Source: Escherichia phage FL31. From it: a stretch of DNA of 64,000 nucleotides. The stretch's first letter is position 1. Each line of letters opens with the position of its first letter. Below, in pieces: positions 48,630 to 54,794 of this stretch. The stretch is taken from sequence record PP400782. One strand, 5' to 3'. Below the pieces are notes generated by a model. That model did no database searches and had not been told where the DNA came from. It saw only the letters and a list, made by a program, of their open reading frames with translations. Both the position numbers and the translations under genes were made by a program.

Positions 48630-48827
48630 ATGTTTAAACTTCCATCGTTAATCAACGCTATTAAAGGCAATAAAAAGAAAACTGCTATCGCTGCAATAGT
48701 TGTAGGTGGCATTATTTCATGGAACTTCGGGATTGCACCATTGCTAGTTGCCCATGGTGTTATGGTTCCTTCTGTTCCATTGGATACTGTAGTTGATTTG
48801 GCCTTTGCTATTATAGGGCTTGTTTAA
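48630..48827 (+). CDS. small membrane protein (65 aa), lone plus-strand gene in the early region
   Basis: Strong SD TAAGGAGAT before the ATG; hydrophobic sequence; convergent with gene 61. Confidence 0.4.
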   Translation: MFKLPSLINAIKGNKKKTAIAAIVVGGIISWNFGIAPLLVAHGVMVPSVPLDTVVDLAFAIIGLV

Positions 48828-49846
48828 ATCTTCGAATAACGAGATAATCTCATTTTAGCATGCAACCCACTTGAAATATTCTGTTTCATATATTCTAAAA
48901 TTTCTTGTGGTGTTGCATTTTCTTTCATTACCATATCATTCACATCCTTTGATCTCCATGGAGCTCGATCCCAGAACATGACACGTTCGCCTGCATCAAC
49001 TAATCGCTTCATGCGAGCTATAGTATCCGGATGCCTAGGTTCATTATCCATTACCCATACCCGACGTTCTTTAAACGGTACCACATCTAAATCTATTGAG
49101 CCGCCTGTAATAGCGATTGCATTGGGTATGAATAAACTATCAATAGGGCCTTCCATTACCCAGACGTCCCCTTCCTTAACACGTTCAACACCATAAATTT
49201 TTGTTGCAGACTCAAACGCTTTAATAGTGATATATTTCTGAGGAGCATCTTTACGAAGTGCACGTCCTTGGAATGACTCGGCCTTCCCATCTTTATTAAA
49301 AATAGGAATCACTAAACGTGGTTCGGGGATCTCTTTCTTATACGTACCAGGTTGAATCTTGTTGACCAATTTGGGCCATTCTAATGTGAACCATAATCTG
49401 TTCCACGATTCTTTAGGAATACACCGAGACTTAACATATTTCACAATAGGATGCTCTTCAGGCAACTTGTCCAGACGAGAACAAGACGGCAAAGAATTTA
49501 TAGTCTTTTTCTCTGGCTCTGGCTTAGCTTCAGGAACCTTTTCAATCTTTGGTTCCATTCTAGCTTTTTCTTTACGAACTTCCATTAGATATTCGCGATA
49601 AAGCTCTTCATCATACTCCTTTAAGTATCCGGAAATTGTATTGTGGTATTGACAGTTATAGCAATGTACATTACCAGGAGTACCGCCATAATACCAACCG
49701 CGAGCTTTCATTGCATCTGTCTGAGAGTCGCCACAAACTGGACATCGAAATGTTAATTTAAATGTGCTTGAATTATTGATTTGTCTAAAACGAGGTAGGT
49801 GAGAAAACGCACGATAAGCAAATTCATTATCTATCCATTCAGCCAT
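48824..49846 (-). CDS. 61: DNA primase gp61
   Basis: 340 aa; zinc ribbon FRCPVCGDS...CYNC; TOPRIM region; matches recalled T4 gp61. Confidence 0.95.
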   Translation of the reverse strand: MAEWIDNEFAYRAFSHLPRFRQINNSSTFKLTFRCPVCGDSQTDAMKARGWYYGGTPGNVHCYNCQYHNTISGYLKEYDEELYREYLMEVRKEKARMEPKIEKVPEAKPEPEKKTINSLPSCSRLDKLPEEHPIVKYVKSRCIPKESWNRLWFTLEWPKLVNKIQPGTYKKEIPEPRLVIPIFNKDGKAESFQGRALRKDAPQKYITIKAFESATKIYGVERVKEGDVWVMEGPIDSLFIPNAIAITGGSIDLDVVPFKERRVWVMDNEPRHPDTIARMKRLVDAGERVMFWDRAPWRSKDVNDMVMKENATPQEILEYMKQNISSGLHAKMRLSRYSKI

Positions 49847-49885
49847 AGTATTCTCCAGAGGCCTTAAATTAATAAGGCCATCTTA

Positions 49886-50380
49886 TCACAACTTATTAAT
49901 ATTTACTTTAATTCGCTTTCTTTTCTTGGAAGGAATTTGTTCGGGACCTTTATTTACGACTGCACCTGTAGTAGTTCCTGATGCAATAGCTTGAGGACTG
50001 CCACCTGAATCACCAGCAACCATATCCTCAAATAAAGGGAGTTCTTTAAATATTTCTTTCTGCTGTTCTTCGGTAATGTTATAGCGTGAAGCTACAGCAC
50101 TCCAAGCAGACATCATTGAGGCCATTCCATTAAGACCTGGAACAGTGCTCATCATTCGCTTCATTGAACGAACTGAAGCATGAAAAGGTGTATAAGCCGC
50201 TTTCTCTTCAGGAGTGGAAGGGCGTTTAAGAACACTTCCACGTTCATCGATGATTTTGGCTTCGTATGCTTTCCATTCGGTAAAAGGTTTTTGCATTAGT
50301 CGAATAAACTTATATGCATAAACAGAATCTATTGCAGTGTTAATAATACCCATAGGTACCTCCTGAGTATATTTAATCAA
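49886..50380 (-). CDS. hypothetical protein (164 aa)
   Basis: ORF. Confidence 0.45.
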   Translation of the reverse strand: MIKYTQEVPMGIINTAIDSVYAYKFIRLMQKPFTEWKAYEAKIIDERGSVLKRPSTPEEKAAYTPFHASVRSMKRMMSTVPGLNGMASMMSAWSAVASRYNITEEQQKEIFKELPLFEDMVAGDSGGSPQAIASGTTTGAVVNKGPEQIPSKKRKRIKVNINKL

Positions 50381-50570
50381 TTACAAAGATTGCTTTGTCA
50401 CCATTTATATCTGTGACTTCATATGTAGTGCCTTCATACTGTGGAATATTCCAAATTACACCATCATTAGCTTTTACGCTAATATGGCATTGGTGTTTTG
50501 AAACAACTTCATAATCTTCAAAACTTGTAAAAACACTAATTTTAGAACCAGTGCAAATTGCAGTAGTCAT
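50373..50570 (-). CDS. hypothetical protein (65 aa)
   Basis: ORF. Confidence 0.3.
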   Translation of the reverse strand: MTTAICTGSKISVFTSFEDYEVVSKHQCHISVKANDGVIWNIPQYEGTTYEVTDINGDKAIFVID

Positions 50571-50571
50571 T

Positions 50572-51231
50572 TTAACCTCGATTCATAAATGCATTAAATA
50601 TTTGGTCATCAACAGAAATTTCTAATTCGACTTCAATTGCTTCAGCCTTTTCTTCAGGTGGTAATTCGTATCCACACACTACAATTTTTTCATCGATATC
50701 AAAATATACAGAAGCAATACGATTAATGTTATTTTCAGTTAAGTCCAAATCAACATCAACATCTTTTTGGCCTACACTTAGAGGATAACTAATACGGGTT
50801 ATTTTATTATCTTTAACAAAGAGTCCACCAACATACTCTGTACTGCGTTTGAAGTTTACACGTTTCCGAATTGAAAGATATGATACATCTTTACCGTGAG
50901 CTCGGCTCATAGGACATAATGAATAGCTAGAATAAGAGATGTCAAATCCTACACCTTCAATATGAGCCAACGCGTCATGATTAAACCAATTATAATCATA
51001 TGCCAAATCCATTATATTGTAATATGTGAAAGGCACTGGATTAACATCATATGTTGTACCTTTAAAATCAGCCCAGGCAACGATTTCGTTATCTTTAACA
51101 ATTACAAAAATTACACCAATATGGTATCCGTTATTATTTTCATTCGGCGTTATATTATAACATTGTGCATTAGGAAATTTACCATATTTAAATGGTGCGT
51201 TTTTGTGCATGTAATAAATCATATTATTCAC
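50572..51231 (-). CDS. hypothetical protein (219 aa)
   Basis: ORF. Confidence 0.45.
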   Translation of the reverse strand: MNNMIYYMHKNAPFKYGKFPNAQCYNITPNENNNGYHIGVIFVIVKDNEIVAWADFKGTTYDVNPVPFTYYNIMDLAYDYNWFNHDALAHIEGVGFDISYSSYSLCPMSRAHGKDVSYLSIRKRVNFKRSTEYVGGLFVKDNKITRISYPLSVGQKDVDVDLDLTENNINRIASVYFDIDEKIVVCGYELPPEEKAEAIEVELEISVDDQIFNAFMNRG

Positions 51232-51517
51232 CTGTGATTTCGGTTACGATATCTTTGTTATCGAAATTAGGGTCACAATACAAAACATAGTTGTACTGCA
51301 TAATACCGCCAGACTTAAGTTGTTCAACAACTTTATTAACCATGTTAGGACGGTCTCGTTTAGTGATGTTCATGATATCAGAGAAGATTTGTTGTTCAAC
51401 CTCTTCTTGATTTGCAGTCATTGACCACTCACAGAGGTCTTTATCATAACCTGCCGTAACTGGAGCCGGTGCACATGATACTGCAAGTAAGATTGCTGCC
51501 AATGATAACTTTTTCAT
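51224..51517 (-). CDS. hypothetical secreted/periplasmic protein (97 aa)
   Basis: N-terminal signal peptide MKKLSLAAILLAVSCAPAPVTA. Confidence 0.45.
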   Translation of the reverse strand: MKKLSLAAILLAVSCAPAPVTAGYDKDLCEWSMTANQEEVEQQIFSDIMNITKRDRPNMVNKVVEQLKSGGIMQYNYVLYCDPNFDNKDIVTEITGE

Positions 51518-51546
51518 TTTAACTCCTTAGTTGATTTGATAGGACT

Positions 51547-51576
51547 ACTATACTATAGTCCATCTATAATGTAAAC
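51547..51576 (-). promoter_or_regulatory. early promoter-like element (-35 GTTTAC, -10 TATAGT) with AGTCCTATCAAA box
   Basis: Minus strand GTTTACattatagatggactatagTATAGTagtcctatcaaatc. Confidence 0.4.
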
Positions 51577-51580
51577 AAGT

Positions 51581-51829
51581 TTATTCTTTTTCGCGAATAA
51601 TAATTACTTGTTGAGGCTGCTGAGCCGATTTCTTTTCGGCAACGATAGACCAAATTAAAGTTCCAATCCAACCAACCATCGTCCAGTTAAAGAGTAAAGA
51701 TACAAAGAAGATTGCTGTTGTGCTTTTTGTGCCACGAATAAGTGCGATTACCCAAGGCAACATGTAAATGATGATTGAACCAATACCTGCGATTAAAACT
51801 GCTACTGAACTAGCTACGAATAATTCCAT
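51581..51829 (-). CDS. superinfection immunity protein (Imm family) homolog
   Basis: 82 aa two-TM protein with LPWVIALIRG...AIFFVSLLFNWTMVGWIGTLIWSI, resembling the Imm-superinfection family motif. Confidence 0.55.
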   Translation of the reverse strand: MELFVASSVAVLIAGIGSIIIYMLPWVIALIRGTKSTTAIFFVSLLFNWTMVGWIGTLIWSIVAEKKSAQQPQQVIIIREKE

Positions 51830-51890
51830 GTTAATTTCCTCTTGATTTGTTATGTTTATAGTATCTTGTTTTAACTTTGGTGTAAACCAA

Positions 51891-52259
51891 TTAATTAAAT
51901 TTGTTTAAACGTTCAATACACTGGACGTAGTTATTCGCGATTTGTTTCTGGGTAGGCTCTTTACCAGTTGTTTCAACATAGCGAATGAATGCGATTTCAG
52001 TGGCCTGTAGACAATGTTCTTTAACGCGTTGTTCTTTTGACAATGCTACAGTATCAGAGTCACGATAACGTTGAGCATGGGCATCAGCTTGAATCATTCG
52101 ATTACCTACAGTAACCGGGTCTTCCACTTCAACTTTAGGTTGGTCATACTGTTTAACATTCGGATTGTAAATTAATTGGCCAACGTTATTAGGGATAAAG
52201 CCATGGGCACCACATCCGGTTAATCCAAATACCATTGCTAAAGCGATTAATTTTTTCAT
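51891..52259 (-). CDS. putative lipoprotein (122 aa)
   Basis: Signal peptide with lipobox LTGC. Confidence 0.5.
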   Translation of the reverse strand: MKKLIALAMVFGLTGCGAHGFIPNNVGQLIYNPNVKQYDQPKVEVEDPVTVGNRMIQADAHAQRYRDSDTVALSKEQRVKEHCLQATEIAFIRYVETTGKEPTQKQIANNYVQCIERLNKFN

Positions 52260-52287
52260 TTCAATTTCCTCTGTAGTTGATAGAAAG

Positions 52288-52317
52288 ATAGTAACACAGT
52301 ATGTGGTGCTTGTAAAC
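52288..52317 (-). promoter_or_regulatory. early promoter-like element (-35 GTTTAC, -10 TACTAT)
   Basis: Minus strand GTTTACaagcaccacatactgtgtTACTAT. Confidence 0.4.
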
Positions 52318-52330
52318 AGTTATTTTAAAA

Positions 52331-52540
52331 TTATTGAAAACCTGCTTCGAAAACTTTCTCGTCATTAATAAATGCTTTAACTAATGCTTTGTTCACTTCA
52401 GCAAGTTGTACCGTAACCCACTCGATTTCTTCGCGATCACCTGATAACATGATATCTTTAGTGAACATCTCACCGCTTTTAAACCAACCGATAAAAGTAA
52501 CTTTAGTTAATTTGCTCATATTTCCTCGCAAAATGCCCAT
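52331..52540 (-). CDS. hypothetical protein (69 aa); overlaps the end of the upstream ORF
   Basis: ORF only. Confidence 0.25.
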   Translation of the reverse strand: MGILRGNMSKLTKVTFIGWFKSGEMFTKDIMLSGDREEIEWVTVQLAEVNKALVKAFINDEKVFEAGFQ

Positions 52541-52833
52541 TCAGCGTGATAAACTGTAGCGCCTTTAGTATCATTCATTTGAACTACATCTACCGGAGAA
52601 ATTACTCGATAGAGACGTGGTTCACCTCCATAAGAGCGTGCTGCTCGTCCTGCATAAATCTTTGCTAAACCGATATCTTCAGTAAAGAATACACGATCCA
52701 AGTTTTTCTTACGTCCAGTTTCAGACAGAACTCCTGTTTCTTCAGGAGGACAAAGCATGTTTTCGATGTTAGCTGAACTACTTGAACCGTGATAAAAAAT
52801 CTTAAATTCTGCTTTACAATCGATGGTTTTCAT
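52516..52833 (-). CDS. small Arr-like (rifampin ADP-ribosyltransferase-like) domain protein
   Basis: FYHGSSS...RVFFTEDIGLAKIYAGRA...RLYRVISPVDV aligns by eye with recalled Arr motifs (FYHGT...IYFSALMEPAVWGAELA...YIYIVEP); from memory, not searched. Confidence 0.4.
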   Translation of the reverse strand: MKTIDCKAEFKIFYHGSSSSANIENMLCPPEETGVLSETGRKKNLDRVFFTEDIGLAKIYAGRAARSYGGEPRLYRVISPVDVVQMNDTKGATVYHAEWAFCEEI

Positions 52834-52859
52834 TTTGTTCTCCAGTAGTTGATAGGTCT

Positions 52860-52888
52860 ATAATAACACAACTACTGGAGAAGTAAAC
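52860..52888 (-). promoter_or_regulatory. early promoter-like element (-35 GTTTAC, -10 TATTAT) nested in an inverted repeat that includes the downstream SD
   Basis: Minus strand GTTTACttctccagtagttgtgtTATTATagacctatcaactactggagaacaaaATG. Confidence 0.45.
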
Positions 52889-53263
52889 TTAAAAACGTAA
52901 TTTAGATACATCTGCGTTGATTTCGGTTTGGTTTGCGTCGTATGCAATTAAACGAACCGCTTTAGATGGGTCATTCAATGCATAGAAATGATGGAACATT
53001 GCTCGAACGATATCACCATTTACGAGTTCTACCTGGATAGGAGAACCTTTTTCGAGTTGGAAATGTTCATAAGCTTTGATGGTTCGCAGATAATCAAGTT
53101 TTTGATTTCCGGCTCCAACAATTTGTACGATACGTTTGCCCATGTTTTCCATACGAGATACAATAGTTTTAGGAGCAAGAATAACGTAGGTTGCCAGCGG
53201 AGAAACTACTTCAACAGTTGTGTTTTCGGTGATTGCAGTAAAAATTGCTTGAGACATATTCAT
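52889..53263 (-). CDS. hypothetical protein (124 aa)
   Basis: ORF with AAGAGGAAAA SD. Confidence 0.45.
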   Translation of the reverse strand: MNMSQAIFTAITENTTVEVVSPLATYVILAPKTIVSRMENMGKRIVQIVGAGNQKLDYLRTIKAYEHFQLEKGSPIQVELVNGDIVRAMFHHFYALNDPSKAVRLIAYDANQTEINADVSKLRF

Positions 53264-53292
53264 AATGTTTTCCTCTTGGTTTGTGTAAGTAC

Positions 53293-53322
53293 ATCATATC
53301 ATGCCTAGAGGAAGATGTAAAC
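53293..53322 (-). promoter_or_regulatory. early promoter-like element (-35 GTTTAC, -10 TATGAT)
   Basis: Minus strand GTTTACatcttcctctaggcatgaTATGAT. Confidence 0.4.
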
Positions 53323-53345
53323 CCCGAAAGGAGACCGAAGTCTCC
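53320..53345 (-). terminator. UUCG hairpin/terminator after gene 41
   Basis: Minus strand ggagac-UUCG-gucucc followed by UUUCGGGGUUUAC (moderate U tract). Confidence 0.45.
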
Positions 53346-53351
53346 TTTTTA

Positions 53352-54794
53352 TTAAAATTTTAACTCATTGGCTAAGCTATCTAGGTCAGCACGTGTTGCT
53401 TTGGCTTTACCTACGCGTTCCGTACGATTCACCTCTGCCTGACGCATCTGAGCACCTGCGTTTTCATTTACTGTGTTAGGTGTGTTCATGCCTTCTTGCT
53501 CAATCTCAACCCATTTCTGGTTGCCTTTACGTACACCCATCAGGAATTTATTCCACTTATTCTTATCACCATATCGTGATTTGATTTGTTTGATAAGTTG
53601 TTGTTCAGCTTGTGCAAGTTCTTCGGTTTCAATTACAGCCAACATGAAATCTGCCGTTGCTGGTAAACCTGCTGATTCTGCGATATCACTCATGTTCATG
53701 TCTGAAGCATCCCATGCTGCACGTCCTACTTGAGCTGCAGTCCATAGAACTGTTTCAGATTCTACTGCTAATGCACGAAGTTCTTCTGCGATAGCTTTAA
53801 CTAATGTGTAGCTATTTTCAGTGTAAACTCTGATACGACAAGACCCACAAATACCTAAGTAATCAACCATGATTACAGATGGCACAAAGTTCTTCTTAAG
53901 TTTTAACTCATTAAGCAATGCACGAAATGTATTAGCGTTAGCTCCACCAGTAGGATACTGTTTAACTACTAAACGTCCTAATGTTGTTTTTGAACGCCAT
54001 TTTTCCATCTTGGCTTTATATTCAGCATAAGATACGTTACCATCATCGATATCATCGAGTGATACGTCAAGCATGTTTGCATCTATACGCTTAGCACAAA
54101 CTTCTTCAGCCATTTCCATGGAAATATAAAGAACATTATGACCTGTTTGAAGATAATCTGCAGCAAGTGAACAAAGGCCTAAAGATTTACCGACGTTAAC
54201 ACCGGCCATTAAAACGTTTAGTGTACCTGTTTCAGCACCACCTTTAGTGATTTTATTCAAAATGTTTAATTTGAACGGGACCTTACGTGCTTTATTTAGA
54301 TAAGAAAGCCAGCGTGCTTCGTAGTCTTCCATCCAGTCATGTCCAACATAACTATCGAACGAAATTGAAAGTGCTTGACGCATAATATCAGGAATAGCTC
54401 CTACGTCAGGCATTTTCTTGTTACGTTGTTCTGGAGGTAGTTCAGCATTAGACTGAATCTCAATGATTTTGGACGTAGCATTATACATCGCTTTTTGCTG
54501 GACATATTTCTCAGTTTCTTTAACCAACCATTCGTGGTCTTCAGGAGTATCAGCCAATTTTTCAATTAGGTCTGAAGTTCCTTTATATTCGGCTTCAGTT
54601 AAAGAACTGTTATCTAAAGCCACCTTTAACGCATTGATAGATGGCATTGCATTATATTCGTTAACGTGGCTCTTTATAATTTTAAAGACATTTTTTGCCG
54701 GTCCACGCTCAAAATACTCAGAATCCATATAAGGCCAGACCTTAGAAAAATAAGCCTGGTCATATACTAGATGAGACAAAATAATTTCTACCAC
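53352..54794 (-). CDS. 41: replicative DNA helicase gp41 (DnaB-like)
   Basis: 480 aa; Walker A GVNVGKS; DnaB-family helicase motifs; synteny. Confidence 0.95.
   Translation of the reverse strand: MVEIILSHLVYDQAYFSKVWPYMDSEYFERGPAKNVFKIIKSHVNEYNAMPSINALKVALDNSSLTEAEYKGTSDLIEKLADTPEDHEWLVKETEKYVQQKAMYNATSKIIEIQSNAELPPEQRNKKMPDVGAIPDIMRQALSISFDSYVGHDWMEDYEARWLSYLNKARKVPFKLNILNKITKGGAETGTLNVLMAGVNVGKSLGLCSLAADYLQTGHNVLYISMEMAEEVCAKRIDANMLDVSLDDIDDGNVSYAEYKAKMEKWRSKTTLGRLVVKQYPTGGANANTFRALLNELKLKKNFVPSVIMVDYLGICGSCRIRVYTENSYTLVKAIAEELRALAVESETVLWTAAQVGRAAWDASDMNMSDIAESAGLPATADFMLAVIETEELAQAEQQLIKQIKSRYGDKNKWNKFLMGVRKGNQKWVEIEQEGMNTPNTVNENAGAQMRQAEVNRTERVGKAKATRADLDSLANELKF

Follow-up and report, generated by a model that had tools for sequence, protein, structure and literature searches.

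Genes between helicase gene 41 and primase gene 61 of Escherichia phage FL31 resemble the anti-toxin and superinfection-exclusion cluster of RB69 and other T-even phages

In phage T4, Imm blocks the entry of superinfecting T-even DNA, and the periplasmic protein Spackle inhibits gp5, the tail lysozyme of the superinfecting phage. Dmd is an antitoxin mimic that acts on the host RNase toxins RnlA and LsoA. Several descriptions in the literature are close to the locus studied here. Srikant et al. 2022 presented Dmd as an inhibitor of RnlA and TifA (gp61.4) as an inhibitor of ToxN, and proposed that the dmd-tifA-sp-adfA-61.1 region of T4 is an 'anti-TA island' (TA, toxin-antitoxin; PMC9391042). 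AdfA, whose function was discovered in the protein of phage RB69, counters DarT, and its R164H variant is the laboratory-evolved form that neutralises DarT1 (PMC11257639). The variable regions of T4-like phages contain PeSL promoter/stem-loop cassettes with the T4-type promoter consensus TTTACW-N17-TAYWAT (Comeau 2014, PMC4122927), which have also been reported from the hyperplastic regions of these phages (Arbiol 2010, PMC2839356). Iyer et al. 2022 predicted a pair made of a 'p0068-family ART toxin plus Dmd antitoxin' in phages of Escherichia, Shigella, and Salmonella (ART, ADP-ribosyltransferase; PMC9503650). Here, we have analysed a stretch of 64,000 nucleotides from Escherichia phage FL31 (PP400782), hereafter the window, and in particular the small genes between its helicase gene 41 and its primase gene 61. 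We consider that this block is very probably the form that the variable early-gene cluster of T-even phages takes in RB69-type phages (Mosigvirus), and that its products guard the infected cell on behalf of the resident phage.

The window comes from a Mosigvirus and is 98.5% identical to RB69. The 6 kb around the block are 98.3-98.8% identical to RB69 and to about 150 Mosigvirus records, and the gene order in these records and in RB69 is the gene order of the window. Gene 41 (53352-54794) and gene 61 (48824-49846), both on the minus strand, flank the block; uvsX and gene 40 follow upstream beyond gene 41, and gene 56 lies downstream beyond gene 61. The gap of 3505 bp between the two flanking genes (49847-53351) is 89% coding and contains nine open reading frames (ORFs), all on the minus strand. 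Their start codons were refined from gene overlaps, Shine-Dalgarno sites, and profile alignments, by which three starts were corrected. A preliminary description of the locus had reported nine small ORFs, and we found that all of them are real genes, because each matches a PHROG family over its full length (E 5e-29 to 4e-131), because they are under purifying selection, and because the antisense ORFs of the block matched no PHROG family. As to selection, the proportion of non-synonymous differences (pN) was far below that of synonymous differences (pS) for every ORF with a diverged relative in T4, JS98, or a metagenomic contig, and the ratio of the corresponding rates (dN/dS) was 0.11-0.41 among the block ORFs for which dS was unsaturated. 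Five of the nine ORFs received a Pfam name, namely Dmd, AdfA, Spackle, Imm, and Imm.1 (DUF5481). The scores of the first four were far over the curated Pfam cut-offs, and the DUF5481 margin of Imm.1 was more modest.

The preliminary description had read these genes as a superinfection-exclusion or anti-defence island. This reading holds, with Imm and Spackle as exclusion proteins and Dmd and AdfA as established anti-TA factors, and it was already known, the T4 counterpart having been described as an anti-TA island. All close relatives contain the block, but the roles known for its genes are not housekeeping roles, and its ORFs pass the coding tests. The Imm-family homolog, the lipoprotein, and the secreted protein of that description were all recovered as well and correspond to Imm, Imm.1, and Spackle. 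Among its 'several unknowns', on the other hand, only the 124-residue, 65-residue, and 61.1-like ORFs remain without a name, whereas Dmd, AdfA, and Spackle, which it had left unnamed, could be assigned.

In T4, the order at the junction is 41, dmd, 61.4, sp, 61.2, 61.1, and 61 within 1.6 kb, and imm and imm.1 are located between genes 42 and 43. The cluster of the window resembles the T4 anti-TA island in its position between 41 and 61, its orientation, and its early expression, and the two have dmd, sp, adfA, and the C-terminal part of 61.1 in common. The T4 island of five genes lacks ORF041c, the ART gene, and ORF033c, and contains tifA. In JS98, the order is 41, ART, dmd, 61.4, sp, three small ORFs, 61.1, and 61, and the ORF at the adfA position gave only a sub-threshold AdfA hit. 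A metagenomic relative has a 124-residue ORF, ART, Dmd, Sp, three other ORFs (two of them DUF7279), a 155-residue ORF, and a likely primase. The junctions of a Kanagawavirus (Klebsiella phage) and of Acinetobacter phage 133 hold other cargo, with ART in both and 61.1 in phage 133. Accordingly, the locus is a variable site of long standing and not a recent insertion, because T4, JS98, the Klebsiella phage, and phage 133 all have variable cargo there, and the word 'inserted' in the preliminary description had to be given up. Compared with RB69 (NC_004928, RB69p031-p041), the window agrees in gene content and gene order, the DNA being 97.8-98.5% and the proteins 95-100% identical, but it lacks tifA, has an intact 61.1, has an altered C-terminus of Dmd, and has three substitutions in AdfA. 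An old cluster that was remodelled in place would explain this pattern; relative to T4 it would have gained imm, imm.1, ORF041c, ART, and ORF033c, and relative to RB69 it would have lost tifA.

The dmd gene (52331..52519) encodes 62 residues, of which 59 are identical in RB69 Dmd. Its product matched Pfam PF17587 with 72.9 bits and, among solved structures, 5I8J (RB69 Dmd, E 3e-35) and 5HY3 (T4 Dmd bound to LsoA, E 5e-17). The adfA gene (gene 61.2, 50572..51222) encodes anti-DarT factor A of 216 residues, which scored 397 bits with Pfam PF23813 and covered this profile at positions 1-211 of 211; a direct sequence search of AdfA against solved structures gave no match. AdfA is identical to the RB69 protein at 209 of 212 residues, and it has Arg at RB69 position 164, which is the wild-type RB69 allele and not the DarT1-neutralising His. 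At 52330..52340 on the minus strand we identified the scar of a deletion of about 208 bp that removed tifA (61.4) almost exactly, as seen in the comparison with RB69 (L001 6034-6243). Two similar GCnnATTTC motifs flank its junction, and the deletion alters the C-terminus of Dmd, which ends in EAGFQ where that of RB69 ends in EADFRG. In the 64-kb window, no TifA-like sequence was found by tblastn at E<=0.1, the sole match having E 0.9. TifA of the RB69 type occurs in 69 phage records, compared with about 154 records of the Mosigvirus type (defined by an ART at least 95% identical), or about 45%, and tifA is therefore polymorphic within Mosigvirus.

The exclusion genes lie in the middle of the block. 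The imm gene (51581..51829) encodes an inner-membrane superinfection-immunity protein of 82 residues with hydrophobic segments at residues 1-34 and 40-59; it scored 56.9 bits with Pfam PF14373 against a cut-off of 27.9, and it is identical to RB69 Imm at all 82 residues and 65% identical to T4 Imm. Downstream of it, sp (51224..51517) encodes Spackle of 97 residues, with an N-terminal hydrophobic signal segment at residues 4-24, 144.9 bits for Pfam PF25676 (T4_Spackle), and matches to the T4 Spackle structures 6X6O and 6XC0 (E 5e-40 to 6X6O over residues 1-97). The predicted lipoprotein Imm.1 (122 residues, 51891..52259) has the lipobox LTGC at residues 13-16 behind a hydrophobic segment, according to a regex-level test, and matched DUF5481 with 37.3 bits against a cut-off of 27. 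It is identical to RB69 Imm.1 at 121 of 122 residues and 34% identical to T4 Imm.1. The T4 RefSeq record labels Imm.1 as 'iduronate sulfatase' (L003 11637-12014), a label that finds no support in our results, the homologue in the window being a small lipoprotein with only DUF5481.

The preliminary description had also given each ORF its own early promoter-like element. Such elements do exist in the gaps between the genes, but there are five and not nine of them. The motif GTTTAC-N16-19-TAnnnT occurs at 19 minus-strand sites in the window, whereas about 1.8 are expected per strand, and five of the 19 are inside the 3.5-kb block, one per intergenic gap. Site 1 (53293..53322; GTTTACA-N17-TATGAT, TG-extended) is upstream of the 124-residue ORF, and site 2 (52838..52888; GTTTACT-N16-TATTAT) is within a stem-loop of 14 bp. 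Sites 3 (52288..52317) and 4 (51858..51887), both GTTTACA-N17-TACTAT, are upstream of imm.1 and imm, and site 5 (51547..51576; GTTTACA-N17-TATAGT) is upstream of the run of sp, adfA, the 65-residue ORF, and the 61.1-like ORF. All five are on the minus strand, and judged from these positions they are predicted to serve the nine genes as five units: the 124-residue ORF alone, ART with dmd, imm.1 alone, imm alone, and the run of four genes.

Stem-loops accompany two of these promoter-like sites. The inverted repeat around site 2 (-21.5 kcal/mol, z -5.7), as stable as which none of 200 shuffles was, extends to the Shine-Dalgarno region of the ART gene. Right behind the stop codon of gene 41, a hairpin of 9 bp with a UUCG loop (53327..53348, minus strand; -16.2 kcal/mol, z -3.0) stands immediately before site 1, and the two form a PeSL-like terminator-promoter cassette at the upstream edge of the cluster. 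Thus, the locus is similar to the described PeSL regions in that a stem-loop and an early promoter of the TTTACW-N17-TAYWAT type follow gene 41, in that promoter-leader modules are repeated between small accessory genes, and in that a deletion occurred between short homologies. It is different in that a significant stem-loop is present at only two of the five block promoters, and shuffling activity is here a matter of inference. A further hairpin (49857..49883, minus strand; -15.0 kcal/mol, z -3.6) separates the 61.1-like ORF from the Shine-Dalgarno site of gene 61, and it might influence how read-through or translation continues from the cluster into that gene. We also noted a direct repeat of 33 nt, 76% identical, between the imm.1 leader (52266-52298) and the ART leader (52838-52870). 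It spans the -10 element and the 5' untranslated region of promoters 2 and 3, and the shuffling of modules could make use of it.

A further protein of the block is the product of RB69 ORF040c (52516..52833), which has 105 residues and a dN/dS of 0.11. The preliminary description had called it Arr-like, which is right at the level of fold and profile, but the protein fails the Pfam Arr-ms test: it had no Pfam hit, Arr-ms (PF12120) being absent at E<=0.1, and a direct sequence search against solved structures gave no match. A model built from an alignment of 40 sequences was confident (pLDDT 83.6) and showed the ART core fold with a conserved His at the site for nicotinamide adenine dinucleotide (NAD+). 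Its best structural matches were Arr (PDB 2HW2) and the RNA 2'-phosphotransferase Tpt1/KptA, and the toxins ParT, RES, and DarT were also among the fold matches. When a profile of 55 members was compared with solved structures, Arr was the only match (E 0.0016), with the NAD-binding motif YHG[ST] aligned. With regard to the H-Y-D motif of Arr, the His aligns, Tyr49 of Arr is aligned with a nearly invariant Phe, and the alignment stops before Asp84 of Arr. The two proteins share a minimal ART core, but the phage protein is about 40 residues shorter than Arr, which has about 140 residues, and has no Arr-ms match of its own. From its sequence and modelled fold, it is best described as a putative minimal ART related to Arr, and not as a demonstrated member of the Arr family; we refer to it as ART.

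An exhaustive profile search gave 221 relatives of ART, many of them domains inside large phage proteins. Several of these fused homologues carry a portal domain, 2H/Acb1, NUDIX, or ART-PolyVal, and remote fused homologues alone pass the Pfam Arr-ms cut-off (26.9-35.2 bits against 25). Literature searches for experimental work on ORF040c, ORF041c, or gp61.1 of RB69 found none. We tentatively propose that ART may be an active early enzyme that ADP-ribosylates a conserved nucleic acid or defence component of the host, with the Mosigvirus-restricted 124-residue protein and the 61.1-like protein as further, so far unrecognised, players, a proposal to which we give somewhat less than an even chance.

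Most probably, ART corresponds to the 'p0068-family ART' that Iyer et al. 2022 described. This raises the idea that ART and Dmd form a self-contained toxin-antitoxin pair of the phage, in which ART is a toxin that perhaps acts on RNA and in which the main job of Dmd is its restraint. In the window, as in the predicted pair, the ART gene is directly upstream of dmd, and the TGA of ART overlaps the ATG of dmd as ATGA; the two genes are also adjacent in JS98 and in the metagenomic relative (L008). The published prediction and the toxins among the fold matches point in the same direction. However, gene overlaps are common across the early regions of T-even phages, and T4 has Dmd without ART. ART is present in 609 phage records, including those of Klebsiella (116), Acinetobacter (68), and Aeromonas (62), whereas these three hosts are not among the organism names listed for the 800 Dmd records, and in three such ART phages the gene downstream of ART lacks the Dmd signature. 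Unlike the pair that was predicted by computation, each partner is thus widespread without the other. In the sequence records, the pairing is not obligate, the partners failing to co-occur across lineages, and we regard a dedicated ART-Dmd pair as unlikely.

For three further ORFs, scans with Pfam, NCBIfam, and PADLOC gave nothing, and their PHROG families are all of 'unknown function'. The 124-residue ORF (RB69 ORF041c, 52889..53263) encodes a soluble protein with a pI of 8.0 that matches phrog_10668 over its full length and is identical to RB69 at 122 of 124 residues. Its distribution is very narrow, with two clusters among 5.8 billion proteins searched, and its dN/dS is 0.23 against a homologue of 52% identity. 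The 65-residue ORF (RB69 ORF033c, 50373..50570) matches phrog_3249 over its full length, is identical to RB69 at all 65 residues, and has a dN/dS of 0.18 against JS98 orf28. The 61.1-like ORF (49886..50353) encodes 155 residues and matches phrog_2086 over its full length; it starts with the ATG at 50353 behind AGGAGG and not with the TTG at 50380. Its product has a helical N-terminal part, a conserved and apparently disordered motif MVAGDSGG..IASGTTTGAVVNKGP, and a basic tail, and its AlphaFold model (AF2) was poor (pLDDT 61, pTM 0.38). In the RB69 reference, a 1-nt deletion in an A-run splits this gene into 61.1 and ORF032c (window 50203; L001 3586-4052), and the other eight differences between the window and RB69 in 61.1 are all synonymous. 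The intact form of 155 residues is that of the PHROG profile and of more than 100 homologues.

Some side observations concern gp61.1 and the neighbourhood of the block. T4 gp61.1 (L003 3967-4131) starts with MKTFKEFIKE, which is identical at 7 of 10 positions to the T4 capsid targeting sequence MKTYQEFIAE, a string found in 10.1101/2021.01.19.427310. In the form of 155 residues, the MVAGDSGG motif is often preceded by (L/I)-x-E, like prohead protease sites. These sequence similarities could hint at a head-packaged peptide derived from 61.1, which we mention as a lead only. Outside the block, a hydrophobic ORF of 65 residues (48630-48827, plus strand) shares 4 nt with the 3' end of gene 61; it corresponds to RB69ORF029w, matches phrog_2024 over its full length, and is the sole plus-strand gene in the neighbourhood.

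Taken together, the gene identities follow from homology, and an enzymatic activity of ART would be predicted from its sequence. In the scheme that we favour, five early promoters of the sigma-70 type would transcribe the cluster right after infection. In the cytoplasm, Dmd would bind and block RnlA and LsoA, AdfA would counter the DNA ADP-ribosyltransferase toxin DarT, and the Arr/Tpt1-like ART, translationally coupled to Dmd, would probably use NAD+ to modify a conserved target in the host or in a defence system. In the inner membrane, Imm would stop the entry of superinfecting T-even DNA, and in the periplasm, where the lipoprotein Imm.1 may also be placed, Spackle would inhibit gp5 of the superinfecting phage.

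Several observations weigh against our reading of the block as a protective early cluster. The mechanisms are all carried over by homology, from experiments on RB69 proteins (95-100% identity) and T4 proteins (54-69%), and four of the nine products (the 124-residue, 65-residue, and 61.1-like proteins and Imm.1) have no known role. A generic sigma-70 scan gave 27 sites compared with 21.3 ± 4.2 in shuffles, which is not above background, and only the T4-specific GTTTAC motif is informative. The target of AdfA in this phage is uncertain, because the R164 allele, as in RB69, fails against the tested DarT1. Finally, between phages of E. coli and of Acinetobacter, the conservation of ART and of the 61.1-like protein equals or exceeds that of the helicase: the identity to phage 133 is 74% for ART, 57% for the 61.1-like protein, and 58% for the helicase, and the identity to JS98 is 90% for ART and 69% for gp41. 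Considering that such conservation is unusual for fast-evolving counter-defence genes, host-takeover or other roles may apply. By these comparisons, the two ends of the block, ART and the 61.1-like gene, are nearly core genes of T4-like phages, even though the former was lost and the latter truncated in T4, and lineage-specific cargo occupies the middle.

The identities to phage 133 would also fit a role of ART and the 61.1-like protein in replication or in nucleotide or RNA metabolism, such as RNA-end repair of the Tpt1 type, rather than in conflict, as would the fusion of ART-related domains to 2H and NUDIX domains, which process ADP-ribose derivatives. However, T4 has no ART and retains no more than the last third of 61.1, and therefore neither is needed for T-even replication. 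Moreover, an equivalent of the RNA-binding N-lobe of Tpt1 is absent from the 105-residue protein, and the profile search of solved structures led only to Arr. We consequently consider such a metabolic role to be quite improbable, below the ART-Dmd pair. That the block is a mobile island, horizontally inserted between two replication genes in recent time, might be suggested by gene content that varies between genera and by PeSL-like cassettes that could mediate shuffling, but this idea is rejected as very improbable, given that a search of the block for an integrase, a homing endonuclease, and flanking repeats found none, that its GC content (0.32-0.40) is similar to that of the flanks, that a homologous core of dmd, sp, adfA, and 61.1 is present at the T4 junction with dmd, sp, and 61.1 shared by JS98, and that the block is 98% identical across about 150 phages.

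In summary, we have described the RB69-type version of the T-even variable early-gene cluster between genes 41 and 61 of phage FL31. The type of phage, its genes, and the notion of an island had all been published before, and little is added as discovery. The value of this analysis is practical, in that it provides an inventory of the counter-defence genes that are present or absent in this isolate. With Dmd and the R164 form of AdfA present and TifA absent, the phage is predicted to be sensitive to ToxIN and to the tested DarTG1, and resistant to RnlAB and LsoAB. Additionally, the four co-located uncharacterised early genes are candidates for anti-defence screens. Among the candidates, the small ART is the most attractive, in view of its unusual conservation and of literature searches in which no experimental study came to light. 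If our proposal for its activity is true, ART would add a new enzymatic function to those of T4-like phages, serving counter-defence or host takeover.

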